Below, one piece after another: positions 1 to 17,168 of a DNA stretch of 64,000 nt (position 1 is the first letter of the stretch; each line of letters starts with the position of its first letter). Below the pieces are notes generated by a model, which was not told the origin of the DNA, did no database searches, and was given only the letters and a program-made list of their open reading frames with translations. The position numbers and the translations under genes were made by a program. Origin of the DNA: a bacterium. Lineage in GTDB: Bacteria > Electryoneota > Electryoneia > Electryoneales > Electryoneaceae. Where the stretch lies: the NCBI GenBank assembly GCA_963675295.2, contig CAXXKJ010000002.1:2784001-2848000 (forward strand). The letters are read 5' to 3'.

Positions 1-473
1 CTGGGTATAGTCATCCGTCCTTCCGCATCGATACCCCAATGATCGCCGAGGCGCAAGTTCAGCCCCGCAAACGCGTGTCCCTTGAACAATAGCGAGGTTC
101 GGCTGTGCTGTTCGAGTAATCCGCCCGCGAACACGGTTGAATATTTGCCATGCATCCCGGGACCCGCTGACAGAACAAAGGTCAACCTGGACAATACGGG
201 GAAATCATGCCGTGCAAGGGCGAACAAGGAACTGACACCTATCATTGTCCTCGTGATGTCCTCTTTTTTTATTGCGACTAGAGTCTCGAACCGAAGTTCA
301 GGATCTAGCAACCACTCGGTATCTAATCGCCATTGGCTTCCTCCCTGCCAAGCGGTGTCCATGTACCCAAACGGATATGCTACGGCAGCGCTGATAGAGA
401 ATTGGGACTGCATGCCCTGACAGTCTTGTGGCACCAGCAAGAGGATGCTCAAAATCGCCAGACATGTAAAAAT

Positions 474-1022
474 AAACTACCCCGCAGCAAGCTACGGGGT
501 ATCGACTACTCACAGCTCAAGTCGACTTTGATGTAGCGGCTGGTAGTTAGCTTCTGTACCTTGGTTCATAACGTATTTTCTGATTGTATTTTCGTCACCG
601 TGCGGACCTACGGTGGATATATAATAACCTTTTGTCCAAAATTCCCCACCCCAGAGCTGCTTTTTAACTTTGGGTTGTCGGATAAACATCTCTCGTGCTG
701 TTATGCTCTTTATAGTTCGTACTAATTTTGTAGCACTCATGGTTGGCACGGATTGCACTAAGAAATGCACATGATCTCTATCTATTCCAATTTCTATAAA
801 TTCTATTTCATAACGTTTTTGGATTTCAAAGCAGATATCCTTTAATGTTAAATCTATCTCAGGTTCATCAAATACAACACGACGGTATTTCGCTACACAT
901 ACAAGATGGTATAGCAATATCGATACGTTGTGTTGTTTTCGGATCAGCTCAGACATTCCACAAGAAACCAACTGCAGCTGGCCGAAGCAAGCTTCGGGGC
1001 ATCAACCGCACTGGAGTGAAAC
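474..1022 (-). mobile_element. IS200/IS605-family insertion sequence (tnpA only, about 545 bp)
   Basis: A Y1 transposase lies between two related hairpins: TACCCCGCAGC-AA-GCTACGGGGTA (478-501) and CCGAAGC-AA-GCTTCGG (982-997). The element is AT-rich relative to its flanks, and AAAC occurs at both junctions (474-477 and 1019-1022). Confidence 0.85.
510..956 (-). CDS. tnpA: IS200/IS605 family Y1 (HUH) transposase
   Basis: Contains YHLVCVAKYRR, the HUH motif DHVHFLV, LWGGEFWTKGYY and the catalytic-Tyr helix IRKYVMNQ. Start taken at MSELIRK. Confidence 0.93.
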   Translation of the reverse strand: MSELIRKQHNVSILLYHLVCVAKYRRVVFDEPEIDLTLKDICFEIQKRYEIEFIEIGIDRDHVHFLVQSVPTMSATKLVRTIKSITAREMFIRQPKVKKQLWGGEFWTKGYYISTVGPHGDENTIRKYVMNQGTEANYQPLHQSRLEL

Positions 1023-1047
1023 ATGTACTTGCGTATCATCATCATCC

Positions 1048-1515
1048 TCACGATTTCAGCTCGATGACCAGCACCATGTGTGAGCTGCTGTTTGTCTTGG
1101 GGACAACGGGTTCTGTTTCAACAGGATCATCCCCACCCCCTGTTTTGTATACATGTTCGCCACTCAGGGAAGCGATACCACCGATATACACGGCCAGGAG
1201 ATAAATGCCGTCATCGACCGAATGATTGTCATCATCGGTGTAATCCCACTGCACGGTGTGAACGCCGGCAGCAAACATGCCCTTTGCAAGATCACGGACC
1301 AACTTGCCGCTGGGCTCGTAAACGGCAATCGAGGCCGAGGATGAAGCAGCCAGGGAAAATTCAATCTCGATCGGAACATCCCGGTTGGTGACTACGACAT
1401 CGACATCGTCCTCATCATACAGCGTCGGTTCGACAAGGTTCTCTGTGTCACAGCCGCACAGCAAGCCAATCAGTATCAACAATGGAATCCACGGAAGTAG
1501 CGCATGTCGTCGCAT
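1048..1515 (-). CDS. Lipoprotein with FlgD-Ig-like domain
   Basis: Signal peptide with lipobox LLCG-C; FlgD-Ig pattern IAVYEPSGKLVRDL...TVQWDYTDD...DGIYL. Confidence 0.7.
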   Translation of the reverse strand: MRRHALLPWIPLLILIGLLCGCDTENLVEPTLYDEDDVDVVVTNRDVPIEIEFSLAASSSASIAVYEPSGKLVRDLAKGMFAAGVHTVQWDYTDDDNHSVDDGIYLLAVYIGGIASLSGEHVYKTGGGDDPVETEPVVPKTNSSSHMVLVIELKS

Positions 1516-1531
1516 GTTGTCCCCCTACAAG

Positions 1532-1555
1532 GGGCCTGCCAGGTTCGACAGGCCC
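1532..1555 (-). terminator. GC hairpin downstream of the FG-GAP gene (possible terminator or attenuator)
   Basis: GGGCCTG...CAGGCCC inverted repeat; U-tract is weak. Confidence 0.35.
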
Positions 1556-1576
1556 ACATTGCGTGCTCAGATGGAT

Positions 1577-3436
1577 TTATCGGACCAGCATCACCTTCTG
1601 GACGTCGTTCAACTCGCCAGGTACAACCGTGCGGATGAAAAACAGTCCGCTGGCCAAGTGAGATGCGTCAAACACCAGCCCATGTGTGCCGGCGGAGTGT
1701 TCTCCATCAGCCAGTTGCATCACGAATTGGCCGGTGACGTTGTACACCGCGACGCTTAGATCGGCTGTTTCGGGAAGGTTGACATGAATCGTGGTCGTTG
1801 GATTAAACGGGTTGGGATAGGCGGCGCTGCACTCATACTGCAACGGCAACCCATCGTTGTCAGATGCTTTGGTTGTTACAGCTGAATGGGTGAACGCAGA
1901 GTGAACACCATCCGCTCGCCAGTGTGTACTTGAGTTGCCGGGAGCTGTGTTTCCCGCGACGATTTCAAAATCAAACTCGTCGCTGCCTACGACCGCATAC
2001 GGGAAACGTCCGGCGTACATGCGGTAGGTATAGGAACCAAGCGGAGCATTTCCGGGGATTTGTTGCCCGAGACCTGATGCGAAGAGTACACCGCCCGGAG
2101 CGATCGGTAGTTGTTCGATCAACCACACAGGCCCGTATTCATCGCCATTGGGAAGGACCGCTACGGTCCAGATGTCGACATAGCGGAATGTGGGTAGCAG
2201 GCTGTGAATGACCGCGTCATATTGAAAGTACCCACCGCGCTGGACATGCAACATCGGCTGAGCGATCAGAGTCACATCGAACAGGTTTGGCAACTCAACT
2301 GGTCCAACCTGCTCCCACAGGGTGATTTCCTGGGCGTAGACTGCGGATCCTAGCACGTCGATGTCGCCGTCTTCATCCATATCCATGGCGAGCACATAGA
2401 ATGCACCATCGAAGTCGCCGTCGATTGTATGCTCGGTCCAGTTTGCCACATTGTTCGTGCCATCGTTCTCCCACCACGCAACCTCACCGCCGGTGACGGC
2501 TGTTGCGAGAATGTCGGTGTCACCATCTCCATCAACGTCTGACGCATACACACCTGCTGCCCAGTCAAAATCATCGCATACGGTGTGTTCGATCCAGTTG
2601 TCGACATTGTTGGTGCCGTCATTCTCCCACCACGTGACATCATCGTCATCCCGGCAGGTACCGAGCACATCGATGTCACCGTCACCATCCATATCTTCAG
2701 CGTAGACATACTGAGCCCCGGTGAACGCCCCGTCAATTGTGTGTTCGGTCCAATTGTCGACGTTGTTGGTGCCGTCATTTTCCCACCACGTGATGTCGTC
2801 GGCGTAGGATGCGGCTCCCAGAATGTCAATATCTCCGTCGTCGTCAACGTCTCGTGCGTAGATCCCATTTGCCCCGTCGAAAGCACCATCGACCGTGTGT
2901 TCGGTCCAGTTGTCGACGTTGTTGGTCCCATCATTTTCCCACCACGTGACATCATCGTCATCTTTCGCAGCTCCGAGCACATCTACATCACCGTCGCTGT
3001 CGACATCGATCGCGAACACACAGTGTGCGCTGTTGTAAGCGTTGTCGACCACATGTTCGACCCATACCTCGGTGTTACCGGCCCCGTCGCTTTCCCACCA
3101 GACGATTCGATCACCGAGCTTGTCTGCACATAACACATCGGTGTCACCATCTCCATCAACATCGATTGCATAGACATAAAATGGATCGATAACGGACGAT
3201 CCGACCAGATGCATCGTCCAATCGGCCAGATTGTTTGTGCCGTCATTCTCAAACCAGACGACCTCATCGTTGTTAATGATCCCAGCGATGATATCGATAT
3301 CACCATCGCCGTTCATATCGGTCGCATGCACCGAGCGGCAGTCAAACACACCATCCGCGGAGTGTTCGATCCATTGCTGAGCAGCTGCCAGAACCGGCAG
3401 CAAAATCGCAACCAAGACACACACTTTCACCTTCAT
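1577..3436 (-). CDS. Secreted FG-GAP/VCBS-repeat beta-propeller protein with T9SS-type C-terminal sorting domain
   Basis: Signal peptide; seven DxDxDGDxD repeats; C-terminal YPNPFNP...QKVMLVR. Confidence 0.88.
   Translation of the reverse strand: MKVKVCVLVAILLPVLAAAQQWIEHSADGVFDCRSVHATDMNGDGDIDIIAGIINNDEVVWFENDGTNNLADWTMHLVGSSVIDPFYVYAIDVDGDGDTDVLCADKLGDRIVWWESDGAGNTEVWVEHVVDNAYNSAHCVFAIDVDSDGDVDVLGAAKDDDDVTWWENDGTNNVDNWTEHTVDGAFDGANGIYARDVDDDGDIDILGAASYADDITWWENDGTNNVDNWTEHTIDGAFTGAQYVYAEDMDGDGDIDVLGTCRDDDDVTWWENDGTNNVDNWIEHTVCDDFDWAAGVYASDVDGDGDTDILATAVTGGEVAWWENDGTNNVANWTEHTIDGDFDGAFYVLAMDMDEDGDIDVLGSAVYAQEITLWEQVGPVELPNLFDVTLIAQPMLHVQRGGYFQYDAVIHSLLPTFRYVDIWTVAVLPNGDEYGPVWLIEQLPIAPGGVLFASGLGQQIPGNAPLGSYTYRMYAGRFPYAVVGSDEFDFEIVAGNTAPGNSSTHWRADGVHSAFTHSAVTTKASDNDGLPLQYECSAAYPNPFNPTTTIHVNLPETADLSVAVYNVTGQFVMQLADGEHSAGTHGLVFDASHLASGLFFIRTVVPGELNDVQKVMLVR
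2400..3260 (-). repeat. Intragenic 156-bp (52-aa) tandem repeats
   Basis: CCACCACG recurs at 2471, 2627, 2783 and 2939; the peptide WWENDGTNNVxNWxEHT is repeated. Confidence 0.85.
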
Positions 3437-3481
3437 GATTTCCCCCAGTACTTGTCTTCGCTATTCCTTTCCTTCTTATAG

Positions 3482-3498
3482 TGCAAGTGTTGCGCCAG
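3482..3498 (-). promoter_or_regulatory. sigma54 (-24/-12) promoter of the FG-GAP secreted protein gene
   Basis: Minus strand reads CTGGCGCAACACTTGCA (GG-N10-GC, close to TGGCAC-N5-TTGC), about 45 bp upstream of the ATG. Confidence 0.8.
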
Positions 3499-3525
3499 AT
3501 AGTACGGAGCACCTACACTTTTATT

Positions 3526-3538
3526 AATCAATGATTTA
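3526..3538. promoter_or_regulatory. IHF-binding site
   Basis: AATCAATGATTTA matches WATCAANNNNTTR exactly and sits between the promoter and the enhancer sites. Confidence 0.65.
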
Positions 3539-3569
3539 ACCTAGAAAGACGTAGGAGGAGAAGTCAATG

Positions 3570-3609
3570 TGTCATCTCAGGATGACAGGGGTGTAATCTC
3601 GGGATTGCG
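3570..3609. promoter_or_regulatory. Tandem enhancer (bEBP) sites
   Basis: TGTCATC-TCAG-GATGACA (3570-3587, perfect 7-bp arms) and TGTAATC-TCGG-GATTGCG (3592-3609). Confidence 0.7.
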
Positions 3610-3690
3610 CGGAAAACCGGAAAACGGTCGGAAGGTTGACAAGCACTGGTGGGATCCTGCCAGTAACCAGGGAAGCCATTCCTGATGCTA

Positions 3691-5070
3691 TCAGGAATCA
3701 GATAGTTCGCGGAAGTCGGCAGGATCAAGGCCCAGGGTGGAGAATATCTTGTACAGGCTGGGTCTTTGAATACCAGAGCAACGGGCGACATCTGCCACTT
3801 TCCCACCTTCCCGTTTCAACAATTCCGTGAAATACCTTAGACGGAATTGCTGTAGCGCAGCCTCATAATCGATGTTACCATCGACTTCGCTTGGGGCGTT
3901 GTCGGCCAACCTCCCGAACATCAGTTTATCCGGCGTAATCTCGGTGCCTGTGGTTCGGATGCAGGCGGCTTCGAGCACGGCGAACAACTCGCGTACGTTT
4001 CCCGGCCAACTGTAGTTCATCAGCTGCTTCATTGTTTCTTTGGACAGCATGGGTGGGTTGTTCTGCCTCCCACGGATCTTCTTCTCAAGATAATAGGCGG
4101 CGAGAACAGGGATATCGTCCAGGTGTTCACGTAGCGGCGGCAGCTCGATCGGAAAAACGTGCAATCGGTAGTACAGGTCTTTGCGGAATGATCCGTCTTT
4201 GACTAGATCCTCCATATTCCGGTTGGTTGCCGCGATGATTCGTACATCAGCCGCTAGTGATCGCATCCCGCCGACACGTCGGAACTCGTGGGTTTCAATC
4301 ACTCGCAGAAGTTTCACCTGCATGTGTGTTGGCAGGTCGCCGATCTCGTCGAGGAACAACGTGCCGCCGTCTGCGATTTCGAAACAGCCAGCTTTTTTTC
4401 CGGTAGCACCGGTGAATGCCCCACGCTCGTGCCCGAAAATCTCACTTTCGAACAATTGCTCGGGCAAATCGGGCAAGGAAACCACGACAAAGGGCTTGTC
4501 TGCCCGTCCCGACAGCCGGTGCAGTTCGCGAGCGACAAGGTCTTTTCCTGTACCGGTTTCACCGGTGATGAGGACAGTGCTGTCCGTCGGGGCGGCTTGA
4601 CGGATCAGTTGCCGAACCTGCTCGACTGCCACATTCTGGCCGATATAGCCGCCGGCAGCCTGGTTCAGACGGTCTCGCAGATGCCCCAGTTCGCGACGCT
4701 GTGCCTTTCCATTCAGTGCACGCGAAATCATCGCGTCCAGTTCTTCCACGTCTGGCGACTTGCCGATATAGTCATCGGCGCCGAGTTTCATGGCACGGAC
4801 GACTGAATTCAAGTCCCGCAGCTTGGAGATCATGAAAACAGGTAGCAGGGGATCGATCGATTTGATCTTTGTGAGGACTTCAAGACCGTCCAATCGTTTC
4901 GGACCGAAATCAATGTCCAATAGTACCGCGTCAGGTGTGTATTCTTCCAGCTTTGCTATCGCCTCTTCACCACTCTCGCACTCCTGGATCTCATACTGAT
5001 CACGAAGTACAAGGGCTAGTGTTCTGCGGAATCCATTGTCGTCGTCAACCAGCAGGATGTGACGCTTCAT
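3691..5070 (-). CDS. sigma54-dependent response regulator (REC-AAA+-HTH, NtrC/AtoC family)
   Basis: REC motifs LLVDDD and LLDID; Walker A GETGTGKD; GAFTGA; Walker B LFLDEIG; WPGNVREL; C-terminal HTH. Confidence 0.96.
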   Translation of the reverse strand: MKRHILLVDDDNGFRRTLALVLRDQYEIQECESGEEAIAKLEEYTPDAVLLDIDFGPKRLDGLEVLTKIKSIDPLLPVFMISKLRDLNSVVRAMKLGADDYIGKSPDVEELDAMISRALNGKAQRRELGHLRDRLNQAAGGYIGQNVAVEQVRQLIRQAAPTDSTVLITGETGTGKDLVARELHRLSGRADKPFVVVSLPDLPEQLFESEIFGHERGAFTGATGKKAGCFEIADGGTLFLDEIGDLPTHMQVKLLRVIETHEFRRVGGMRSLAADVRIIAATNRNMEDLVKDGSFRKDLYYRLHVFPIELPPLREHLDDIPVLAAYYLEKKIRGRQNNPPMLSKETMKQLMNYSWPGNVRELFAVLEAACIRTTGTEITPDKLMFGRLADNAPSEVDGNIDYEAALQQFRLRYFTELLKREGGKVADVARCSGIQRPSLYKIFSTLGLDPADFRELSDS

Positions 5071-8000
5071 TGACTGGCTCCGCTTTTCTCGGCGTATCTC
5101 AACTCGATTCGCATGGTCGTACCCTGATCGGCCGATGATTCAGCAACGTAAATCGTGCCACCGAACCGTTGCAACAATTCCTTACTGCGATACAATCCGA
5201 AACCACCTCCCTCACCTCCGCCTTGGGCAGAAGTACTGAATGAGGCATCAAAGATGGCTTCCCAAAACTCCTCTTTGATGCCTGGTCCCGAATCGATAAC
5301 GTCCACCCTGACCATGACGGCAGACTGCTGCACCTGCAGACGCAGTTGCCTGGTCGTCCTGTTGGCCAGTACCCGCAGGCTGTTTTGAACCAGGTTGTCC
5401 AGCACGAACATCAGGTGTTGGCGGGGCAGCCTGACGAGCACATCTGCGGAATCGGTGTCAACCCTCAGTGTAATTCCCTTGGCAGCGATTTCGGATTCAT
5501 ATCGTTTCAGAACATCAGCAAGAACATCCGCCAGTACGGACGAGAACTCCGGCGACAGTTCAGCGCGCAAGCGGTCAATGCTCTCGTCAAGGTTTTCCAG
5601 CAGGTTCAACGTTTTCTCTGCATGCGGAATCTCTCCACGGACGATCGTGTCTTCCACTCGGCGCAGCCTCTGGTCCAACGTCCGCAGACGATCATTCAGC
5701 AGGTGCCCGTTCCCGCCGTTGACCTTCGTTGCTCGAGCCAGATGATCGATTCGCTGCAATGCTGGAAAGGTGTAGGTCTGAATCTGACTGATCAGCTCGT
5801 GAATGTGTCCTGCCAGTTCCGGACCGGGTTGCGTCGAACGATGGGACAGGTTCTGCAACAGGAATTTGAGACTGTCGACCGGACTTTCGACCTGCTTGTT
5901 CTGGTGCCGGAACTGAATCAGCTCGAGGTACAGCTGTTCACGATCCGTGTGACTGTGCGTTCGCTTCCGTGCCACTGCCCCGGGAATGGTCACCGTAGCG
6001 AATACGATCAGCGAGGCCCCGACATACCCGGCAACGAACCAGGGATAGAATCCCCAGAAGATGTACATCGCGAACAGCACAAAGGCTGCGAGCATCGCCA
6101 GTTTGCTGAGCGGTCGGCGCTTTTTCGGCCACAACCAGCCCATTAACAAGGCTGCCAACAGCAGCGGAAGACCCTGAAGCCAGAGTGGCAACCTTTTCAC
6201 CAGGTGCTGCACTGATGTTCGCCACAGAATCATCGGCGTCGCGACTGCCAGCTGGAACAATTGAGATCCAGATTCCACCACGGTGACAGTTGAACCCGCA
6301 CGGATGCCAGTCCTTAAGATTCGCAGTCCGGATGGGAAGACACATTCGAGATCAACGAGCCTTTGTTCGCCGGTTCCGAAGTGGATGGTTCTACTGGAGT
6401 GCGATGATTTTCCGCCGGTCTCAGCGGCTTGCCTGTATCCGAGCAATGCGTCCGACTCACCGAGACGACCATGGTGAAACAGTCGAACAACCGCCCCGAT
6501 TCCGTCACGGTTTGACTGAGTTCCGATCAGGTTCACTTTTAGGAATTGATTGTTATTGCATGGGTTGAGCTTCACTCGGTAATTGAGAAAATAGTCAACG
6601 ATGACGATGTCCAGATCGCCGTCATCATCGAGATCGCCACTAAGCAATCCATTCCCACCGCCAGAATCTTCAAATCCCGAGCCGATGATCTCATTCTTGA
6701 AACTGCCGTCTCCGTTGTTGATGAACAGGGCATTTTCCATGTCCACGTTCAGCAGGTACAGATCCAGCCACCCATCTTGATTCAGATCGAGAAATTCCGC
6801 TGCTTCGGTGGTGAAAGTCTGCGTGAGTGCAACCGAATCGGTGACATCGACAAATCCTTCTACTCCACGATTTTCAAGCAAGACGCCACTTTTACGATAG
6901 CTGTTCTCTGCTTCCGGATACCACGGCAGGTAGCAGGCATACAGGTCCAGATCTCCATCGTTGTCGTAATCCCCTTGACAGAATGTGTGATACGGATTGC
7001 CGCCCGGTTTTAATAGAATGTCCAACTGCTGTTCGGCAGCATTGAACTCAAATGCCCCCTGCCGGTAGTGAAGTTCGGTAAGCGGCGCATATAGATCAGA
7101 AATGCGATCCCCATCGTAGTCAGCAAATGCCGGGTGAGCAGTTCCGAGTCCATAGACCCAGTAGGCATCCAGACGGGAGTCAATGCGTTCATACCTTCGC
7201 TTTTTAACGGATTGAAACACATTGATTTTAAATTTGTTAACCTGATTCTCTTTCTTCCTGAAGTGATTGGCATAGCCATGATGAAGCAGGATATCCAGGT
7301 AACTGTCCTCGTCAAGATCCTGCACCAGAAAACCGGTCCAGTTCAATGGATCAGAAATGAAACCCCACCTTTCAGTCCCCGACTCAAATACTCCAGAACC
7401 ACGGTTTTCGAATAGCTGTGGCGGGCTTATGGCGTATTCGTTGGCCAGGAGGATATCCTGGTCGCCATCGTTGTCCAGATCGGCAAACAGCGCAGAGCTC
7501 CCCACTCCGATATCGCCGGCACCTTTCAATTTGGACTGGAAAAACTCTCCGTGACCGTTGTTAAGCAGCAACGGATTCGGATGCAGATGCGACGCGAAGT
7601 ACAGATCCAGGTCGCCATCACCGTCGGCATCTCCCAGCGCGGCAGCGTTGGGGTGGAATTTTGGCGAGTGGCTCAATTCATCCAGGGATTCGACAAGCGA
7701 GGGACTTGGATAATCCTCGAATGGACACAGGCGGGCGGGACCGACATAGATGTTATCCAGCCAGACATGCTGGATGCGTGTACCTCCGACATCGATTTCC
7801 AGCGAAGCCAGCCGGATGTTTCCAGCCAGGTCCGGGTATTGCGATTCAAGCAACCGTACGAGGCTGTCCACGGATACCGAAACACAATGCCATCGATTCG
7901 GTACCGTGGGTATCAGGCATTCATAGCTGAAGGTATACCGTGTACATGCATACCAATCGTAGTAGAACAGCCGTGAACTGTCCTGTGGCACCTTGAAATT

Positions 8001-8393
8001 CAGCCGCACGTTGGTGAAGTTCGTTTCCCACACGTCCGATACTTTCCATTCCCAGCGAAATGTGGTTGCTTCGTCGGGGCGAACATTCATCCAAGGTTGC
8101 AGGTCACGGCGAATCCTACAGCGTTGATTACCAGCCGGATCGAACAAGCTGACATCGAGACGCAACGTGGATGATCCGTCATGACCCGTGTTTGGTTCGA
8201 TGGAAAGGGACGTTGCCCCCGCCTCTTCGGCGATGTACCACGGCGAGGGAGTTGTCCGGTCGAACTCGTCAATCAGTGCGGTTATCTGTGCGGATGCTGA
8301 GGAAATTATGCACAGAGTCAGGATGGCCAGGAGCGCAATTGTTCCTGTTTCGTGCAGCGTTTGGCGTGATATATCTGGCATGCCCCACTTCAT
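5067..8393 (-). CDS. Sensor histidine kinase with extracytoplasmic FG-GAP/CRTAC1-ASPIC(UnbV)-like region
   Basis: N-terminal hydrophobic segment; GDADGDGDLDLY-type repeats; ASPIC-like SNRDGIGAVV...IHFG; about 3 TM segments; HATPase boxes DNLVQNS, DSGPGI, IFDASFST and GGFGL. Overlaps the regulator start by 4 bp. Start uncertain (8468, 8393 or 8381). Confidence 0.85.
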   Translation of the reverse strand: MKWGMPDISRQTLHETGTIALLAILTLCIISSASAQITALIDEFDRTTPSPWYIAEEAGATSLSIEPNTGHDGSSTLRLDVSLFDPAGNQRCRIRRDLQPWMNVRPDEATTFRWEWKVSDVWETNFTNVRLNFKVPQDSSRLFYYDWYACTRYTFSYECLIPTVPNRWHCVSVSVDSLVRLLESQYPDLAGNIRLASLEIDVGGTRIQHVWLDNIYVGPARLCPFEDYPSPSLVESLDELSHSPKFHPNAAALGDADGDGDLDLYFASHLHPNPLLLNNGHGEFFQSKLKGAGDIGVGSSALFADLDNDGDQDILLANEYAISPPQLFENRGSGVFESGTERWGFISDPLNWTGFLVQDLDEDSYLDILLHHGYANHFRKKENQVNKFKINVFQSVKKRRYERIDSRLDAYWVYGLGTAHPAFADYDGDRISDLYAPLTELHYRQGAFEFNAAEQQLDILLKPGGNPYHTFCQGDYDNDGDLDLYACYLPWYPEAENSYRKSGVLLENRGVEGFVDVTDSVALTQTFTTEAAEFLDLNQDGWLDLYLLNVDMENALFINNGDGSFKNEIIGSGFEDSGGGNGLLSGDLDDDGDLDIVIVDYFLNYRVKLNPCNNNQFLKVNLIGTQSNRDGIGAVVRLFHHGRLGESDALLGYRQAAETGGKSSHSSRTIHFGTGEQRLVDLECVFPSGLRILRTGIRAGSTVTVVESGSQLFQLAVATPMILWRTSVQHLVKRLPLWLQGLPLLLAALLMGWLWPKKRRPLSKLAMLAAFVLFAMYIFWGFYPWFVAGYVGASLIVFATVTIPGAVARKRTHSHTDREQLYLELIQFRHQNKQVESPVDSLKFLLQNLSHRSTQPGPELAGHIHELISQIQTYTFPALQRIDHLARATKVNGGNGHLLNDRLRTLDQRLRRVEDTIVRGEIPHAEKTLNLLENLDESIDRLRAELSPEFSSVLADVLADVLKRYESEIAAKGITLRVDTDSADVLVRLPRQHLMFVLDNLVQNSLRVLANRTTRQLRLQVQQSAVMVRVDVIDSGPGIKEEFWEAIFDASFSTSAQGGGEGGGFGLYRSKELLQRFGGTIYVAESSADQGTTMRIELRYAEKSGASQ

Positions 8394-8531
8394 GCCCACT
8401 GTCCCCCAATTCGTCGGATTGAAGTGACTCTCCGATGAACCCAGGCAAGATATGTGCCTCATGATCACGAAGTAAAAAACGTTCCGCTATCCCGCATTTG
8501 TTCCTCCCCTGCAAAGCTCTCGACAGAAAAG

Positions 8532-8570
8532 TGTCTCCCACGTATGACAGGTTGTCAGCTGAAACAGACG
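8532..8570. promoter_or_regulatory. Tandem enhancer (bEBP) sites
   Basis: TGTCTCCCACGTATGACA (8532-8549) and TGTCAGCTGAAACAGACG (8553-8570); TGTC-N10-GAC pattern with a 21-bp period. Confidence 0.62.
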
Positions 8571-8643
8571 GATGCTTCATCGGCTCGCATGTTGGAATTT
8601 TCTAAACCATTGTTTATTCAAATCTTGTTTCCAACCTCAACCT

Positions 8644-8660
8644 CAGGCCCTGTGTTTGCG
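8644..8660 (+). promoter_or_regulatory. sigma54 (-24/-12) promoter of the candidate sRNA
   Basis: CAGGCCCTGTGTTTGCG (GG-N10-GC with TTGC), 76 bp from the enhancer pair. Confidence 0.55.
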
Positions 8661-8670
8661 AATGTTGTGG

Positions 8671-8878
8671 CTGTCCAAGGGTGACGTAGTCGCGCGGACT
8701 GGATTCGTACAGGGGAAGGGCTCAGGGGCTACCTCCAGTGAATCTACCCGCGCCCAATGGAGACACGCACGGCGGTTCCGCTTTCCCCCGTGTGGTATGA
8801 AACCCAGCGCTGATCCACGGATGCGCGAAATAAGACGTGCAAGGAGGGGAGGTTGGGATTCGTCCCAGCCTCCTTTCT
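8671..8878 (+). ncRNA. Candidate sigma54-dependent small RNA (about 205 nt)
   Basis: Bounded by a -24/-12 promoter and a terminator; internal stems GCGCGG/CCGCGC, GGATTC/GAATCT and CACGG/CCGTG; no convincing ORF with an RBS. Confidence 0.45.
8848..8878 (+). terminator. Rho-independent terminator
   Basis: GGAGGTTGGGA-TTCG-TCCCAGCCTCC-TTTCT. Confidence 0.75.
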
Positions 8879-8958
8879 GGTTCATCAAGGCGTCTTTGTC
8901 GGAGCACGGTTTCGAAACCTCCAGCAACCGATCCAGCAGTCCTGTTTCCAGGCAAACC

Positions 8959-8997
8959 TGTCTCCCTTGGAAAACAGTTTGTCATCCAGCGAAGACA
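8959..8997. promoter_or_regulatory. Tandem enhancer (bEBP) sites
   Basis: TGTCTCCCTTGGAAAACA (8959-8976) and TGTCATCCAGCGAAGACA (8980-8997); 21-bp period. Confidence 0.65.
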
Positions 8998-9067
8998 CTA
9001 TTGTGGTGCTTTACTCCCCACCGAATGCAAAGCATTTGATTCCACTGAAATTACCAATTCTGGTTTT

Positions 9068-9084
9068 TCGGCATTCGATTTGCC
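9068..9084 (+). promoter_or_regulatory. sigma54 (-24/-12) promoter of the beta-helix protein gene
   Basis: TCGGCATTCGATTTGCC (GG-N10-GC), 73 bp from the enhancer pair. An IHF-like AATCAAATGCTTT lies on the minus strand at 9029-9041. Confidence 0.62.
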
Positions 9085-9148
9085 CATAACAACGGGAAAG
9101 GAGAAAAGGCATTCAGCAGCATGAAGTTTGGAACAGGGGGACAGGATC

Positions 9149-11608
9149 ATGTGTAAGCGTTGGACTGGAGTAGCTCTTGGCATTTTTTTGCTGGTTTCGG
9201 CAGGTATCGCTCAAACTGAAATCAGTGGTCCGCAAAGCGGAACCATCACAGCTGGCACGTACATCGTAGTCGGCAGCCTTTCAATCGTAAACGGTGAGTC
9301 ATTGACCATCGAACCGGGAACAACGTTTCTGTTCGATGGCGAACACGACTTTTTTGTTGGTTCAAACCGCACGTTGACCTGTGTCGGCACCGAAACGGAC
9401 AGCATCAAGTTTCTGCCGAATGTCGACAACGGCGTCACTGAGTGGGGGCACTTTTCGTTTATCAACTCGGGCAACGACGATCAGTTCGCGTATTGCTTGT
9501 TCTCTGGCGGGTGTTCTGAAAATTTTGGCGGTGCAATCGACTGCGCGAATTCAAGTCCATCGCTATCAAACTGTGTGATCCGGGATTGCATGGCAGACGA
9601 TTTTGGAGGTGGAATTGCATGCAGAGATGCTTCCGACCCGGTAATTGATCAATGCACGATTACTGGTAATTCGGCTTATGTTGGAGGTGGTGTTTACTGT
9701 TCTGAATCACAATCAACATTAACACAGTCATTAATCAGAGATAACAGTTCATATTCTGATGGTGGAGGCCTCTATTGCATTGATAATTCTGATTTAGGTG
9801 TATCAGACTGTATCTTCATCACAAATATCGCTGGTAGTAACGGTGGTGGAGTTTACTGCAATAATTCAATACCAAATCTTACGGCCTGCTCGTTTGATAG
9901 CAATCATGCTTTTTATGGAGGAGGTCTGTACTTTTATAACTATAGTAATGCGATAATCGAAAACTCATCAATAACAAACAATGTAGCTACTTCTCAAGGA
10001 GGTGGTATAATGTGTCATTTATATTCAGACTCTTTTATTAAATACTGCAATATTTCAAATAATACGGCAACAAGCAGCCATGGAGGTGGGATAAACTGTG
10101 GTCAGTATGCCGATGCTACCATTGAATATTGTACCATTGCCAATAATTTTTCAGGTGCACATGGGGGTGGTATTATCTCGGTAGGGTCTACTATCGATGT
10201 ATCTTGCTGTACTATTACTTCAAATACGTCAAATGCAAATACAGGAGGTATCTTTCTCCAACATCAAACGCCAAGTGTTGCAAATTCAATCGTATCCTTT
10301 AACACTGGTGTAGGTATTTATCTTGATGCTGGATCTCCTGAAGTCATGTTTTGTGATGTCTACAGCAACTCAGGAGGCGAATATGGAGGCAACGCACTTG
10401 ATCCAGATCTTGGTGTCATCGTCGGTGAGAACGCCAACGGGGATCCGTGCGACGCGTTCCACAACATCTCGATGGATCCGTATTACGTCGATGCTGCCAA
10501 CGGGGACTACCACCTGACGTACGGTTCGCCATGCATAGACGCCGGCGATCCGGACAGCCCGCCGGATCCGGACAATACCGTCGCCGACATCGGTGCGTTC
10601 CCATTCAGCCACGGACCCGCGATCCTGGTCACAGCCCCGACCGCCGGAACCGTCTTGATGCGAGGTGACAGCTTCGACATCACGTGGAACGACAACATCA
10701 CCGAAATGGTCTCGATTGAGCTGCACCAGGGGGGGAACCTGGTTGAAGTTCTTACCGACGGCACGGAAAGTGACGGCGTATACGAATGGGATATCACCGA
10801 GGACGGCCCGGTCGGCGATGACTTCACCATCGTCATCACCAGCACCACCGATCCGGGGGTAACCGACAGCAGCGATGAATTCACACTTGACGAACCACCC
10901 CTGCTGATCCTCGAACTGGTCGCGGATGACACCCTGATCGTGCCCCAGGGAGGTTCGTTTGAGTACGGTGTGATTCTGGAAAGCAATCTGGCAACGACGC
11001 ATATCGGGGATCTGTGGACGGAAGTGGATCTTGTGAGTGGGTACACGTACGGACCCATCTGGCTGTTGAGCGATATTTCCGTCGGGCCGAACACATCTCT
11101 GGTCGCTGAAGGCATCGGGCAGGCGATTCCGGCGACAGCAGCACCGGGCTATTACACTTTCCGGATCGAAATCGGTTACTTCCCCAGCTATTTCGTGTTC
11201 TCCGATGAAATCACAATTGAGGTTACCGAGGTACCCGTGGCTGGAATCAGCGGTTCAGAACCGGTCGATGATTGGCATGCGTGGGGGTACCAGGATGCGT
11301 TCAAGTTAAATATTGCTGCTATTGTGGACACCGAGCTCCCGGACGAATACAGCATGTCGCCGGCCTACCCGAATCCATTCAATCCGACCACGACTGTTTC
11401 CGTCAGCTTGCCGGAAACGGCAAGGCTGAAGGTGTCCGTGCTCAACATACTTGGCCGGAAGGTTGCTGAACTCGCTGACGGATCCTTCAGCGCCGGAGAA
11501 CACAATATCGTTTTCGACGCCACGAGACTTGGGAGCGGTTTGTACTTTATCCACGCTACCGTTCCTGGACACCTTGACCAGGTGCAGAAGGTGATGCTGG
11601 TGCGTTGA
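9149..11608 (+). CDS. Secreted right-handed parallel beta-helix (GGAI/GGGI repeat) protein with Ig-like domains and T9SS-type CTD
   Basis: Signal peptide; repeated N-x-A-xx-GGG[IVL]-x-C units; SPCIDAGDP and DIGAF motifs; YPNPFNP...QKVMLVR. Confidence 0.88.
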   Translation: MCKRWTGVALGIFLLVSAGIAQTEISGPQSGTITAGTYIVVGSLSIVNGESLTIEPGTTFLFDGEHDFFVGSNRTLTCVGTETDSIKFLPNVDNGVTEWGHFSFINSGNDDQFAYCLFSGGCSENFGGAIDCANSSPSLSNCVIRDCMADDFGGGIACRDASDPVIDQCTITGNSAYVGGGVYCSESQSTLTQSLIRDNSSYSDGGGLYCIDNSDLGVSDCIFITNIAGSNGGGVYCNNSIPNLTACSFDSNHAFYGGGLYFYNYSNAIIENSSITNNVATSQGGGIMCHLYSDSFIKYCNISNNTATSSHGGGINCGQYADATIEYCTIANNFSGAHGGGIISVGSTIDVSCCTITSNTSNANTGGIFLQHQTPSVANSIVSFNTGVGIYLDAGSPEVMFCDVYSNSGGEYGGNALDPDLGVIVGENANGDPCDAFHNISMDPYYVDAANGDYHLTYGSPCIDAGDPDSPPDPDNTVADIGAFPFSHGPAILVTAPTAGTVLMRGDSFDITWNDNITEMVSIELHQGGNLVEVLTDGTESDGVYEWDITEDGPVGDDFTIVITSTTDPGVTDSSDEFTLDEPPLLILELVADDTLIVPQGGSFEYGVILESNLATTHIGDLWTEVDLVSGYTYGPIWLLSDISVGPNTSLVAEGIGQAIPATAAPGYYTFRIEIGYFPSYFVFSDEITIEVTEVPVAGISGSEPVDDWHAWGYQDAFKLNIAAIVDTELPDEYSMSPAYPNPFNPTTTVSVSLPETARLKVSVLNILGRKVAELADGSFSAGEHNIVFDATRLGSGLYFIHATVPGHLDQVQKVMLVR

Positions 11609-11648
11609 TGCAGACAGGCTCCACAGATCGATTTTAAAGAGTCACTCT

Positions 11649-11688
11649 CGGCCACAGGTCAAATACCCCGACCATGTGGCCGTTTGTT
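11649..11688 (+). terminator. Probable terminator
   Basis: CGGCCACA-GGTC...GACC-A-TGTGGCCG-TTTGTT. Confidence 0.55.
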
Positions 11689-11961
11689 GCTCAGTGGCGC
11701 TTTACAGGTGTTTCTATCGCGAAGAATCGCAAGCATCTAGTGGATGGCTGCACAGTGAGCGCAGAGGATACGAGGTTCACTGAATGACCTCGAATCCGGT
11801 AGAGGCTATATTTTATATAGGATTACCCACTCCGTATTTGGTGCAAATGAGGTGCAGTGCGGACAACATACGACCACATTCAGCCACTTATTTCAAGAGC
11901 TAACCTATAGTATAATCAATCGTTAACAGTTGCGACTTGTTGTCGAATATTGGCGTGCTAA

Positions 11962-12007
11962 GACTGTTAATCACTAGGTTGGCGGTTCAAGTCCGTCCTG
12001 GGGAGCA
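11962..12007 (+). mobile_element. att-site remnant: 3' half of tRNA-Asn(GTT)
   Basis: GACTGTTAATCACTAGGTTGGCGGTTCAAGTCCGTCCTGGGGAGCA contains the anticodon loop, T arm and 3' acceptor strand. No D arm or 5' acceptor strand is present upstream. Confidence 0.8.
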
Positions 12008-12017
12008 AGAAGCAGAC

Positions 12018-12051
12018 AAGGGTCAGGCAAACGCCTGGTCCTTTCTTTTTT
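12018..12051 (+). terminator. Rho-independent terminator following the tRNA fragment
   Basis: AAGGGTCAGGC-AAAC-GCCTGGTCCTT followed by a T-rich tract. Confidence 0.75.
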
Positions 12052-12485
12052 CCGTTTCGACCGATCCAGAACCGCTCGACTTTCTTCGTACCGTTTCCAG
12101 CCAAGCTGTCTTGATGACACCCAAGGACACTCCCAAACCACTCCCTCAAGCCCTGAGTGCATGAGAACGAAAGCTGGCCCAAGTTAACGCACAACTGTCC
12201 CACATCGTGAAGAAATGAGGCACGGTATGGGTCTTTTCCCTCATACAAGATATGCCTGGCCTGGACGCATCCGAATTCCTTCTTTCCCGGCACGGACCAC
12301 CTTGGAATCCGACTTAGCCTTTACTTCGATTGGTGAATTCGTTACCTTCTTCACGAAGCCGTGACGGGTTTGTTCAGTGGTCACGGTGCACCGCAATTTT
12401 TGTCCCCTGCGATGCGGTCACAACCCTGTAGATTCAAAGTGTGCAGTCTGGTTTCTATCGTCCACTCTTGATGAAAAGGTCAACG

Positions 12486-14291
12486 ATGAAACACATTCTT
12501 TTCCTCCTCGCATTCGCAGTCTCCGCGTTTTCCCCAACATTCGCTCAAGTTCCAGACACCGTGTGGACAATGATCCATGGTGATTACGGCAAGAACATCG
12601 GCATGGATGTTGAGCAGACTCCGACTGGTGAGTTCGTCATTGCCGGCACGGCTCGTGTCACCCAGGATGACCCGCTCAACGGGGATGTCTGGCTGGTCAA
12701 ACTGGATGCAAACGGCAACGAGATGTGGACCAGCTACTTCGGTGGAGCGGGCGGCGAAGAAGGCCGGGGGATGGCTCCCGCACACGACGGTGGCTGGGTT
12801 GTCTGCGGTATGACGTATTCTTTCGGTGACCCGGACGTCGACGACATGTACTGTGTGAAAGCAGATGCAGATGGAAACCTCGAATGGGTGCGGACCTTTG
12901 GGGGTGACTACTCGGATGCAGGACGTGATGTCATTGCGACGAACGACGGCGGCTACCTGTGGGTTGGCTATACGCGCTCCTTCGGTGCAACACAACAGGA
13001 CATCCTGCTGGTAAAGACGGACGCGGATGGAAACGAGCAATGGCACCAGCTTTACGGCGGCAGTGAAAACGATCAGGGCTGGTCACTCGCGCAACTGGAA
13101 AATGGAAACTATGCGATTGCGGGACGCACGTGGTCGTATGGTGCTGGGGGACGTGATGCCATCCTGATGGAAGTCACGCCGACGGGTGAACAACTCTGGC
13201 AGCAAACGTACGGTGGTCCGGAAAAAGACCACTTCTATGAAATGCGTCCCACTCCCGATGGTGGATTCATCAACACGGGAAAAACAGAATCCTTCGGCCA
13301 GGGTGCGGGTGACGCATGGCTGATTAAAACGGACGCTGTCGGCGACGAAGAATGGCGCAGGTTCTGGGGCACAGAAGAACTTGAGTTCGGGCGAAGTTGT
13401 ACTCCCACAACGGACGGTGGCTATGCATTCTGCGGTGTGACCCATGTGGACGGAAATGTCGGCAATCAGCTCCTGGTGGCAAAAGCCAGCGCTGACGGTG
13501 AATGGGAGTGGTCTTTCACCATCGGCGGCAGCGACATGGAGGATTCATGGTGCATCCGCCAGACACAGGATTACGGGTACGTCGTATCCGGATTCAGCTG
13601 GTCGTATGGTAATGCAGAACGAAGCATGTTTGTCGTCCGCCTTGAATCAGATTATGGGGAAGTCTCAGCGAACCTGTCTGCGCCAACTGAACCGGTAGCC
13701 GTTACGCCTGAATCCACGTTTTCCTACACATGGGCTGTTCACAACAACACTTATGACCAGATCACAGGATATGACCTGTGGCAGGTCCTGGAATATCCTT
13801 CCGGGGTTCACGGACCACCGGAATTCATGTATTCAGACAACCTTGAGCTGGAACCGTTGACGGAAATTGGTCAGGACCTCCTGTACGAAGTTGGCAACTG
13901 GGTCCTGGGCACCTACAGTCTTCATCTGCAAGCTGGTCACTATCCGAACGTGGTTGACTCGGATGAATTGCAATTCATCGTCAGCGAATCCGGCACGGGC
14001 ACGGACCCCGAAGTGCTCATCCCGGAAACCTTTGCGTTGTCCAAGGTCTATCCCAATCCGTTCAACTCAACCCTCACAATTGCCGTCGATGTCGCCCAGC
14101 CCACGCAGCTCACGGTCAAACTCTTCGATGTGTCGGGACGTTTGGTGAAAACGCTGGTACGTGCTCCCGTAGCCCCGGGTCAACACCAATACAGTGCCCG
14201 CATGGATGATGTCGCGTCCGGAATGTATTTCCTGCTGGCTGAAAACTCACTCGGTGAATCAGCCACCGAGAAGGTTGTCCTGCTTCGCTGA
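12486..14291 (+). CDS. Secreted beta-propeller repeat protein with T9SS-type CTD
   Basis: Signal peptide MKHILFLL...AQ; repeats KxDAxGNxxWxxx[FY]GG and DGGY; YPNPFNS...KVVLLR. Confidence 0.85.
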   Translation: MKHILFLLAFAVSAFSPTFAQVPDTVWTMIHGDYGKNIGMDVEQTPTGEFVIAGTARVTQDDPLNGDVWLVKLDANGNEMWTSYFGGAGGEEGRGMAPAHDGGWVVCGMTYSFGDPDVDDMYCVKADADGNLEWVRTFGGDYSDAGRDVIATNDGGYLWVGYTRSFGATQQDILLVKTDADGNEQWHQLYGGSENDQGWSLAQLENGNYAIAGRTWSYGAGGRDAILMEVTPTGEQLWQQTYGGPEKDHFYEMRPTPDGGFINTGKTESFGQGAGDAWLIKTDAVGDEEWRRFWGTEELEFGRSCTPTTDGGYAFCGVTHVDGNVGNQLLVAKASADGEWEWSFTIGGSDMEDSWCIRQTQDYGYVVSGFSWSYGNAERSMFVVRLESDYGEVSANLSAPTEPVAVTPESTFSYTWAVHNNTYDQITGYDLWQVLEYPSGVHGPPEFMYSDNLELEPLTEIGQDLLYEVGNWVLGTYSLHLQAGHYPNVVDSDELQFIVSESGTGTDPEVLIPETFALSKVYPNPFNSTLTIAVDVAQPTQLTVKLFDVSGRLVKTLVRAPVAPGQHQYSARMDDVASGMYFLLAENSLGESATEKVVLLR

Positions 14292-14310
14292 TGAACAACT
14301 CGAGTAGACT

Positions 14311-15669
14311 ATGGACCGGCGTCAATTCGTAAAAACATCCTTCAGCACCACCGCCGCGCTGGCCCTGGCGAACCAGGGCTTTTCCCAACCGAATCAGCCA
14401 AATGTGCTCTTCATCGGCGTCGAAGATCTTAACGACTGGATCGGTTGCCTCGGCGGTCATCCAGACACGATTACACCCAATTTCGACCGCCTCGCAAACA
14501 TGGGCATGCTGTTCAGCAACGCCCATTGCAACGCGCCCGCATGTGTTCCCTCACGAACCACGCTACTTACCGGAATTCGTCCATCGACTTCCGGCGTGTA
14601 TGACAACGGCATGCACTGGCAGGACTACATCCCGGACGCGGTGACAATGCCGGTCCACTTCAGGGACCATGGGTACACCACGCGAAAAGCAGGGAAGATC
14701 TTCCATTTTGAGGAACCGACTTTCTGGGATGATATGGCGCCCTTTTCCCCGAAGGTCATACCCCCGGAAAAACGGTATAACGGTCTGCCACTGAAGCCGA
14801 ATGATCGCTTCGACTGGACAGCACTGGATGTTCCGGAAGAAGAGATGCAGGATTACAAGCATGCGGATTATGTCATCTCAACCCTTGAAAACCCACCCGA
14901 TCAGCCGTACTTCCTCGCTTGTGGATTTCACAGGGTACACACTCCCTGGTACTACCCGCGGAAATACATGGAGAAGTTCAATCCGAACGAGGTGACATTA
15001 CCACCCTACCTGGAAAATGACCTCGATGATGTGTCCAATATCGGTATCAGCTTCACCTACCCTGCCCTGTTCAACCAGGTGAAGAATTACAAGCAGTGGC
15101 ATGCGGGAGTGGCTGCTTATCTCGCGGGCATCAATTTCATCGACGCACAGCTGGGCCGCATCCTCGATGCCTTTGACGCTACCGGAGCGGCGGACAACAC
15201 CATCATTGTCCTGTGGAGTGATCACGGCTGGCATTTGGGTGAGAAAAACCACTGGAAGAAGTTCACCTTATGGGAAGAGTCCACGCGTATCCCGATGATG
15301 ATTCATGTTCCCTGGTTGACGACGGAGAACAGCTCCTCCGACCAGCCCATGAGCATGGTTGACCTCTTCCCCACACTCAATGACCTCTGCGGATTGCCGG
15401 ACATTGATCAACTGGAAGGTTCAAGCCTCGTTCCCTGGCTGAGCAATCCCAATTTGCAACGAGCGGAACCGGCGCTGACGACCTACCGCTACATGAACCA
15501 CGCTCTGCGTGACGACCAATGGCGTTTCATACGGTACAACGACGGATCTGAAGAGTTATACGATCACGATACCGACCCGAATGAATGGACCAATCTAGCG
15601 GATATCCCCGCCTATCAGCCAATTAAGGATGCCCTGAGTCAGTGGTTTCCGGAGGTGAATCACCCATGA
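14311..15669 (+). CDS. Formylglycine-type sulfatase (iduronate/choline sulfatase-like) with Tat signal
   Basis: MDRRQF twin-arginine leader; PNVLFI; CVPSR (CxPxR); GKIFH; SDHGWHLGEK; ELYD. Confidence 0.92.
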   Translation: MDRRQFVKTSFSTTAALALANQGFSQPNQPNVLFIGVEDLNDWIGCLGGHPDTITPNFDRLANMGMLFSNAHCNAPACVPSRTTLLTGIRPSTSGVYDNGMHWQDYIPDAVTMPVHFRDHGYTTRKAGKIFHFEEPTFWDDMAPFSPKVIPPEKRYNGLPLKPNDRFDWTALDVPEEEMQDYKHADYVISTLENPPDQPYFLACGFHRVHTPWYYPRKYMEKFNPNEVTLPPYLENDLDDVSNIGISFTYPALFNQVKNYKQWHAGVAAYLAGINFIDAQLGRILDAFDATGAADNTIIVLWSDHGWHLGEKNHWKKFTLWEESTRIPMMIHVPWLTTENSSSDQPMSMVDLFPTLNDLCGLPDIDQLEGSSLVPWLSNPNLQRAEPALTTYRYMNHALRDDQWRFIRYNDGSEELYDHDTDPNEWTNLADIPAYQPIKDALSQWFPEVNHP

Positions 15670-17168
15670 GAAAGCCGGCATTCATTCGTTTGTCAACGTG
15701 GTCAGCAAGCCTGCTCGTGATTCTCCTGCTGGTGGGAGTCGATTACGCGAACGATCACCGTAAGCCGCACACCGATCGTTCCATCACCACCCTGAACAGT
15801 GGTTCGGCTTACGATATCCTGCTCTCTGTCACGACTGTGTCAACCGATGAGTTGCTGCTGACGGGACGGACATCCTCACACGATGCCGAGCTCGTTGACG
15901 GCTACCTCGCCCTGACCGACAGTAACGGTGAGCCGGTATGGGAGGAAACGTTCGGTGGTGAAGCATGGGATGAGCTTCGTGTCGCCGTCGAGGGTACGGA
16001 TGGCGGCTATCTCGCGGCAGGAACATCTGAATCAACGGACAATGAAACCTACGACTTCTGGGTCGTAAAAGTAGACGCTGCTGGATCCCTCGAATGGCAG
16101 ACTATGTACGGATCTGACACGGAAGATGACCAGATTGACGCGGTCCTGCCGGCAGCAGACGGTGGATACTACCTCGCTGGTTTCACCAACGATGATCTGG
16201 ACGACAACAGGTCAAACGTCTTCCTGGTCAAGATTGATCAGAATGGACAACTCGAATGGCAAAACTCATATGGCAGCGAGCGAAATGATTATTGCAACGC
16301 CATTGCCTTCACAGGCGACAACCACCTTCTGCTCGCTGGCAGCACGTTTTCCTACGAGGACGAACACCGCGATATCCACCTCGCGAAGGTTGAACTTGAT
16401 GGAGATCTTGTATCTGAAACGTTGATCCAGATCCCTCATCCGCAGATTTGCAATGCGATGGTGGCAAATGCTGACGGATCGTTTACCCTCTGTGGCGAAA
16501 CCTATCCTGACGATGACACGGAATTCAGTTCCGCGTTTGTCGCAAGGATCGATTCCGATCTGCAACTCGACTGGATGAATACCTACGGCTCGAATGGTAG
16601 TTTCGCGGCGCAGGATATCGTGATCCGGCCGGGCGGCGGGTACTACCTCAGCGGACGTGCGACCCCGAATAACGAAGTTGCATTCGACGGGTGGGTCTTT
16701 ACTGTCACACAGAATGGCAACCTGGATGAATCGTGGGAATTCGGCGGTGGTGCCTACGAAGAATTCTACGGTATCGACCTCGTCAGCGGCGACATTCCGG
16801 TAGCCGTCGGCTATACTTCATACAGCGCGTCACGACTCGCTGATTTCTACATGGTGATTGATCTGGAAGACTCGGTCGAGGTCGGTGAAGAGCGCCTACC
16901 AATGATGCCGATGTTGATGCAGGTCTACCCGAACCCGTTCAATTCGACCGCGATGATCGAGCTTGACCTGCCGGTACGTTCTGAAGTACAGGTCGTGCTC
17001 TACGACATGCTGGGACGCGAGGTAACCGTTGTTGCAGATCAGGTCGCTGGACCGGGCAGTCAGCAGATTTCCATTTCCGCGGAAACCCTCGCCTCCGGAA
17101 CTTACATCGTCTATGCCAGCACCGACACCGGACATTCTGCCGCACGCAAGCTTACACTGGTCAAATGA
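15666..17168 (+). CDS. Secreted beta-propeller repeat protein with T9SS-type CTD
   Basis: Same repeat type as the 12486 gene; YPNPFNS...KLTLVK; ATGA overlap with the sulfatase stop. Confidence 0.82.
   Translation: MRKPAFIRLSTWSASLLVILLLVGVDYANDHRKPHTDRSITTLNSGSAYDILLSVTTVSTDELLLTGRTSSHDAELVDGYLALTDSNGEPVWEETFGGEAWDELRVAVEGTDGGYLAAGTSESTDNETYDFWVVKVDAAGSLEWQTMYGSDTEDDQIDAVLPAADGGYYLAGFTNDDLDDNRSNVFLVKIDQNGQLEWQNSYGSERNDYCNAIAFTGDNHLLLAGSTFSYEDEHRDIHLAKVELDGDLVSETLIQIPHPQICNAMVANADGSFTLCGETYPDDDTEFSSAFVARIDSDLQLDWMNTYGSNGSFAAQDIVIRPGGGYYLSGRATPNNEVAFDGWVFTVTQNGNLDESWEFGGGAYEEFYGIDLVSGDIPVAVGYTSYSASRLADFYMVIDLEDSVEVGEERLPMMPMLMQVYPNPFNSTAMIELDLPVRSEVQVVLYDMLGREVTVVADQVAGPGSQQISISAETLASGTYIVYASTDTGHSAARKLTLVK

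Follow-up and report, generated by a model that had tools for sequence, protein, structure and literature searches.

The 755-nt gene-free region at positions 8394-9148 of the window (the whole stretch of 64,000 nt that was analyzed in the present study), which is flanked by a sensor-kinase operon on the minus strand and a gene for a beta-helix protein on the plus strand, raises the question of whether a promoter lying inside it, designated P2 here, drives a small regulatory RNA. The first-pass annotation of this DNA had described a complete sigma-54 enhancer-promoter at this site, followed by pairable stems and a UUCG-loop terminator ahead of the next enhancer, and had proposed a regulatory small RNA (sRNA) as an output of the two-component module, with the titration of CsrA as a more speculative function. 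The host lineage is uncultured, and to our knowledge neither an sRNA nor an sRNA chaperone is known in it. The features of the locus are as follows.

1577-3436, minus strand: gene for a 619-aa FG-GAP protein that has the type IX secretion system (T9SS) sorting domain also found in the beta-helix protein; second cargo gene, downstream of the regulator gene
3441-3446, minus strand: GGGGGA site ahead of a regulon start codon
3497-3482, minus strand: promoter TGGCGCAACACTTGCA of the fourth unit, with an exact dyad, TGTCATCCTGAGATGACA, at 3570-3587, ahead of the FG-GAP T9SS gene
3691-5070, minus strand: gene for an NtrC-type response regulator, a sigma-54 activator (Pfam Response_reg, Sigma54_activat, and AAA_lid_14)
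5067-8393, minus strand: gene for a sensor histidine kinase with an FG-GAP/ASPIC periplasmic domain (Pfam), ATG at 8393
8401-8406, minus strand: GGGGGA site ahead of a regulon start codon
8444-8459, minus strand: sigma-54 promoter of the kinase-regulator operon, AGGCACATATCTTGCC, predicted start at approximately 8433
8532-8549 (exact) and 8553-8570 (one mismatch): UAS1, two TGTC-N10-GACA dyads 21 bp apart
8645-8660, plus strand: P2, sigma-54 (-24/-12) promoter AGGCCCTGTGTTTGCG, GG at 8646-8647 and GC at 8658-8659, predicted start at approximately 8671
8671-8880, plus strand: predicted non-coding transcript of approximately 210 nt, no coding signal in six frames
8843-8878, plus strand: terminator-like hairpin, 16-bp stem, UUCG loop (8859-8862), -27.8 kcal/mol
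8959-8976 (one mismatch) and 8980-8997 (exact): UAS2, two dyads serving P3
9069-9084, plus strand: P3, sigma-54 promoter CGGCATTCGATTTGCC of the beta-helix gene
9134-9139, plus strand: GGGGGA site ahead of a regulon start codon
9149-11608, plus strand: gene for a beta-helix protein of 819 aa with a T9SS C-terminal sorting domain (Pfam Beta_helix, NosD, and Por_Secre_tail; TIGR04183)

Positions 1577-11608 of the window form a compact sigma-54 regulon with four promoters of the same dyad geometry, the members of which are an FG-GAP sensor kinase, an NtrC-type regulator, and two type IX secretion cargo proteins. The kinase is 1108 aa in length, which is that of the called protein P0001, and the activator gene is located 3.6 kb from P2; rpoN was also found in the genome. 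The NtrC-type regulator scored under every NCBIfam equivalog cut-off. The beta-helix gene is a predicted target of the regulon. The hexamer GGGGGA, which is present in 131 of the 5230 upstream windows of the genome, is located 4-9 nt before the ATG in all three protein-coding units of the regulon, and Shine-Dalgarno sites are in general use in this genome (AGGAG is enriched 6.9-fold). On the far side of the beta-helix gene, a hairpin of -21.3 kcal/mol directly follows position 11608, and an 830-nt gap without a long open reading frame (ORF) (11609-12440) separates this gene from the next T9SS cargo gene (12441-14291).

Regarding P2 itself, the motif has the form GG-N10-GC with its boxes 12 nt apart and matches 8 of the 11 consensus positions, which makes it the joint-weakest match among the four promoters of the locus, with C replacing the consensus A in TGGCAC. 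The window contains 41 copies of the bare motif GG-N8-TTGC, where shuffles predict 40.3, so that the motif is not enriched and the promoter call for P2 rests on its position. The two dyads of UAS1 are located 92 and 113 nt from P2; the corresponding distances are 90 and 111 nt for the promoter of the kinase operon and 89 and 110 nt for that of the beta-helix gene, while the single dyad of the FG-GAP gene is located 90 nt from its promoter. Seven dyad-to-motif pairs at 86-92 nt were found in the 4.8-Mb genome, four of them in this locus, and seven were found genome-wide at 109-115 nt, three of them in this locus. The exact dyad TGTC-N10-GACA occurs 73 times in the genome; by genome-wide count, all exact-dyad pairs at these spacings belong to the locus. 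Motifs scoring at least 8/11 numbered 1145 in 9.63 million strand-positions, from which approximately 6e-4 would be expected in a 5-nt slot. Since the dyad distances of P2 match those of three gene-driving promoters, and considering this small slot chance, we counted P2 as a genuine promoter, in agreement with the first-pass annotation. Measured from the center of UAS1 (8551), the GG of P2 is 95 nt away and that of the kinase promoter 93 nt; therefore, UAS1 is midway between two divergent promoters and a single enhancer can serve both.

The interval downstream of P2, with a GC content of 0.61, is richer in GC than the intergenic region as a whole (0.515) and than its flanks (approximately 0.48). 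Codon scores in its six frames ranged between -0.10 and -0.30, against 0.244 +/- 0.143 for true frames, and none of six longer ORFs across the region was found in a 15-billion-protein collection that does contain the kinase. Elsewhere in the genome, no DNA resembles the interval; the 16 nt at 8817-8832 recur exactly at three sites, which was set aside as one chance match to a three-copy repeat. The scan of the window against Rfam returned nothing at gathering thresholds, and four matches in 8400-9200 were at chance level (E 4.9-8); the predicted RNA is outside every catalogued RNA family.

The proposed terminator stood in part. The hairpin is real and is located approximately 172 nt downstream of the predicted start, and UAS2 begins at 8959, as described previously, 80 nt beyond it. 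On the other hand, its tail UUUCUGGUU is partly paired and its T-run is interrupted, and a consensus terminator scan made no call at 8843-8878 because the T-run is located partly inside the stem. A hairpin at or below -25 kcal/mol was present in 8.8% of 500 windows after long ORFs, against 0.8% of 500 intragenic windows of 120 nt, which places the 8843-8878 hairpin in the class that this genome has at gene ends, on a par with the best of them.

The pairable stems that had been noted in the body of the RNA were not borne out as a signal. The 213-nt stretch folded with a z-score of -1.41 (19 of 200 shuffles folded as well), which is owed mostly to the hairpin, and the z-score of the 113-nt RNA body was -0.03, with 88 of 200 shuffles folding as well. 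Conservation was uninformative. BLAST of the intergenic DNA against 40 relatives gave one 36-nt match at chance level, outside the RNA, and the best other match of a single-sequence covariance model of the RNA body in 78 other genomes of the phylum had an E value of 0.48, with none being credible. A search for sequencing runs containing the locus turned up no RNA run; the contigs of two DNA runs are identical to the window and derive from the same strain, so that they offer no variation to read. The kinase has no ortholog in three genomes of the same genus or, at E 1e-40, in the 78 other phylum genomes, no protein above 31% identity to it was present among 5.8 billion, and the best relative of the regulator in the 78 genomes is 45% identical; therefore, the missing homologs of the RNA carry little weight. 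The module as a whole is a singleton. The locus is bordered by a transposase gene of the IS200 type (Y1; 510-971, minus strand), and the GC content of positions 1-16000 is 0.50-0.545 against 0.577 +/- 0.033 genome-wide; combined with the absence of orthologs from the phylum, these features fit an acquired island.

More distant relatives of the kinase were also found. It belongs to a family of histidine kinases (P0011, P0088, and others; alignment A2) of approximately 1100-1300 aa, in which the sensor domains are of the FG-GAP/ASPIC type and the His of an F-x-H-x-E-W-like motif is invariant. Its alignment with P0011, a distant homolog, runs from end to end at 24% identity. A search of genome contigs with the kinase returned FG-GAP proteins only. 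A metagenome scan with the generic pattern FADFDND identified a full-length kinase homolog in 2 of the 80 listed loci (L118 and L119, from one organism). In L118 (5722-16609 of a metagenome contig, the same locus as L119), this distant homolog, which is 22% identical over residues 225-1067 of the query P0088, is followed by a sigma-54 response regulator, the promoter TGGTACGTGCCTTGCA with the palindrome CTAACTAAAGTTAG 89 nt upstream, and two T9SS cargo genes. This arrangement indicates that the pairing of an FG-GAP kinase with the sigma-54 control of secreted cargo recurs. Neither L118 nor L119 carries an orphan unit.

A screen of the genome placed 129 of the 1145 sigma-54-like motifs in a non-coding context, and 10 of these, P2 included, have a hairpin at or below -25 kcal/mol 60-420 nt downstream. 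The further motifs of this screen (G000 C2) are located at the following positions.

962366, minus strand: screened sigma-54-like motif
4074802, plus strand: screened sigma-54-like motif
540393, plus strand: screened sigma-54-like motif
4307543, minus strand: screened sigma-54-like motif
2225577, minus strand: screened sigma-54-like motif
1369785, plus strand: screened sigma-54-like motif

Two of the ten, with scores of 10 and 9, may be further small-RNA candidates. Four of the ten units end in a recurring palindrome, (CC)GGGGACAC..GTGTCCCC(GG), which looks like a repeated terminator element.

Regarding possible partners of the RNA, neither CsrA nor Hfq (no Pfam match) was found in the 92.8%-complete genome, in which the controls were detected, and ProQ was not found in the genome. 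Any action of the RNA would, therefore, be independent of these chaperones. The RNA contains UCCCCC, a candidate complement to the GGGGGA of the regulon genes. Pairing was predicted against 5230 start regions, with that of the kinase left out; using the whole RNA core, the beta-helix gene ranked 2574 and the FG-GAP gene 3948 of 5230, and using the loop segment they ranked 603 and 1503 of 5230, respectively. As the predicted pairing with the regulon start regions was unremarkable, the pairing of UCCCCC with the common GGGGGA was dropped, and we regard the correspondence as a coincidence without an explanation.

Based on these findings, we tentatively propose, at a likelihood that we put a little under even, that P2 drives a sigma-54 sRNA that depends on the regulator and has a layout resembling those of GlmY/GlrKR, Qrr/LuxO, or Pxr/Nla19. 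The FG-GAP sensor kinase would phosphorylate the neighboring NtrC-type regulator, which in its phosphorylated form would bind both dyads of UAS1 and, from this single enhancer, fire the divergent kinase-regulator operon and P2 with the sigma-54 polymerase. P2 would then give a non-coding RNA of approximately 210 nt that ends at the 8843-8878 hairpin, before UAS2, while UAS2 with P3, and the fourth unit, would drive the two type IX secretion cargo genes. The RNA may thus represent a post-transcriptional output that is induced together with these cargo genes, and any function in trans would probably be exerted by base-pairing without Hfq. The more specific version of this proposal, in which a bidirectional enhancer co-induces an autoregulated FG-GAP-sensor operon and an Hfq/CsrA/ProQ-independent riboregulator of approximately 210 nt that tunes a T9SS cargo regulon, is possible but rather unlikely; if true, this little-studied phylum would have its first example of a sigma-54 sRNA linked to T9SS cargo.

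The same geometry may be read in other ways. The enhancer of the kinase operon, being equidistant from P2 and the kinase promoter, may also fire a promoter-like site and produce a functionless RNA, with the hairpin 80 nt before UAS2 insulating UAS2/P3 from the polymerase; the RNA body without excess structure or conservation agrees with such a by-product. However, a useless promoter is losable by one change in GG or GC, yet the boxes are intact at the exact spacing, and a chance site in the right slot is expected at the low frequency given above. We consider a by-product to be unlikely. P2 and the hairpin may otherwise have been left by a lost or decayed gene or by an old tandem duplication of an enhancer-promoter, with P2 being unused. 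In this respect, UAS1 and UAS2 aligned with a score of 22 (12.0 +/- 2.2 for shuffles, reached by 2 of 300), and their common sequence, TGTCTCCC-N7-ACAG-N-TTGTCA, exceeds the minimal dyad. In addition, the locus is low in GC and lies beside a transposase gene, and a G-rich stretch resembling a ribosome site, GGGGAAGGG, is located approximately 45 nt after the predicted start, with the GGGGGA of the real genes being at approximately 25-40 nt; no start codon follows GGGGAAGGG within 5-12 nt. Against such a relic, a six-frame tblastn search of the genome gave nothing better than E 0.24, and the P2 boxes are intact. Moreover, neither the spacers nor the downstream DNA of the P2 and P3 units align (downstream score 16 against 18.5 for shuffles). 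The two units share binding sites only, which fits functional sites better than a fresh duplication, and we regard a relic as improbable.

Since the beta-helix gene is on the same strand and under the same regulator, P2 may also be conceived as a second, upstream promoter of its mRNA, with the hairpin acting as an attenuator and read-through adding to P3; the 5' arm of the hairpin is rich in G and could, from the sequence, pair with the C-rich segment CUUUCCCC (8781-8788). Nevertheless, none of the alternative pairings in the fold approaches the strength of the 16-bp stem, no riboswitch or leader family was matched, and an upstream promoter would be redundant to the second enhancer-promoter, which is complete and separates the hairpin from the beta-helix gene, so that a leader of this type appears to be quite improbable. 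The translation of the transcript is a still fainter prospect. It has three short ORFs, of 18 aa (ATG, 8759), 20 aa (GTG, 8738), and 78 aa (TTG, 8853), with codon scores of -0.06 to -0.09 against 0.244 +/- 0.143. The 18-codon ORF, as previously described, has no ribosome-binding site. In a genome that uses Shine-Dalgarno sites, the AAGGAGG 5 nt upstream of the TTG at 8853 speaks for the 78-aa ORF; however, this site and the TTG are both buried in the 16-bp stem, the ORF was not called as a gene, and its two matches among 1.84 billion representatives were translated tandem repeats rather than true homologs. A small protein is, therefore, very improbable. The suggestion that the RNA is a sponge titrating a protein, in the manner of CsrB/RsmY or CrcZ, had been based on eight GGA, three of them as A-N-GGA. 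These counts were correct, yet they are within the range of chance: 5.5 +/- 1.7 GGA were expected in the interval, 119 of 1000 shuffles reached eight, and 101 of 1000 reached three A-N-GGA. With neither CsrA nor Hfq found in the 92.8%-complete genome and no Rfam match, the sponge is close to refuted. As for the broader proposal of a regulatory sRNA, its genuine enhancer-promoter, non-coding interval, and terminator-grade hairpin held, whereas homologs and excess fold stability were not obtained.

Should the RNA be produced, the control of T9SS cargo would gain a post-transcriptional arm, and the locus would provide a clean case of one enhancer for two divergent sigma-54 promoters. With its single sensor and activator, four promoters, two secreted proteins, and the RNA, the regulon would then be small enough to be tested as a whole. 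Should the RNA not be produced, the locus still represents a well-defined sigma-54 regulon, and the finding itself would be ordinary.

Among known systems, GlmY with GlrK/GlrR (QseE/QseF) of Enterobacteriaceae likewise combines a sigma-54 sRNA promoter with an adjoining gene for an NtrC-type regulator (PMC3045617). GlrR binds TGTCN10GACA sites approximately 100 bp upstream of glmY, which are the same site consensus and distance as in the candidate (PMC3045617). The candidate differs in that neither the GlmY nor the GlmZ model of Rfam was matched, either at E values up to 10 across 8400-9200 or at gathering thresholds in the window, and its regulator scored 315.5 bits against the GlrR cut-off of 763. 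It has two dyads against three at glmY, its RNA gene is divergent from the operon with an enhancer in common, and no overlapping sigma-70 promoter was seen. Furthermore, its lineage, which uses type IX secretion, is unrelated to Enterobacteriaceae.

The Qrr RNAs of vibrios are approximately 100 nt in length and Hfq-dependent. In Vibrionaceae, a putative Qrr was located opposite luxO in 20 of 21 taxa, and Qrr/LuxO and the candidate have in common a sigma-54 sRNA gene opposite in orientation to the adjoining gene for an NtrC-type activator (PMC10162802). Unlike Qrr and CrcZ, the candidate is found in a genome in which Hfq was not detected, and it matched no Rfam family. Sigma-54 sRNA promoters beside genes for sigma-54 regulators are also represented by pxr, which adjoins nla19 in Myxococcus (PMC5568312), and by the sigma-54 regulome of Desulfovibrio vulgaris, which includes four non-coding RNAs (PMC4641369). 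The Pxr and D. vulgaris RNAs are conserved across relatives and Pxr has a demonstrated function, whereas the candidate is a singleton predicted from sequence.

The zraP and zraSR promoters are both sigma-54-dependent. In E. coli, one regulator-binding region in the spacer between them serves the two divergent units, and, as in the candidate, the two-component operon is itself one of these units (PMC8249747). The partner of zraSR is the protein gene zraP, whereas the partner in the present locus is a gene-free interval ending in a hairpin. Overall, a small RNA driven by P2 is credible but unproven, and would belong to an already known kind.
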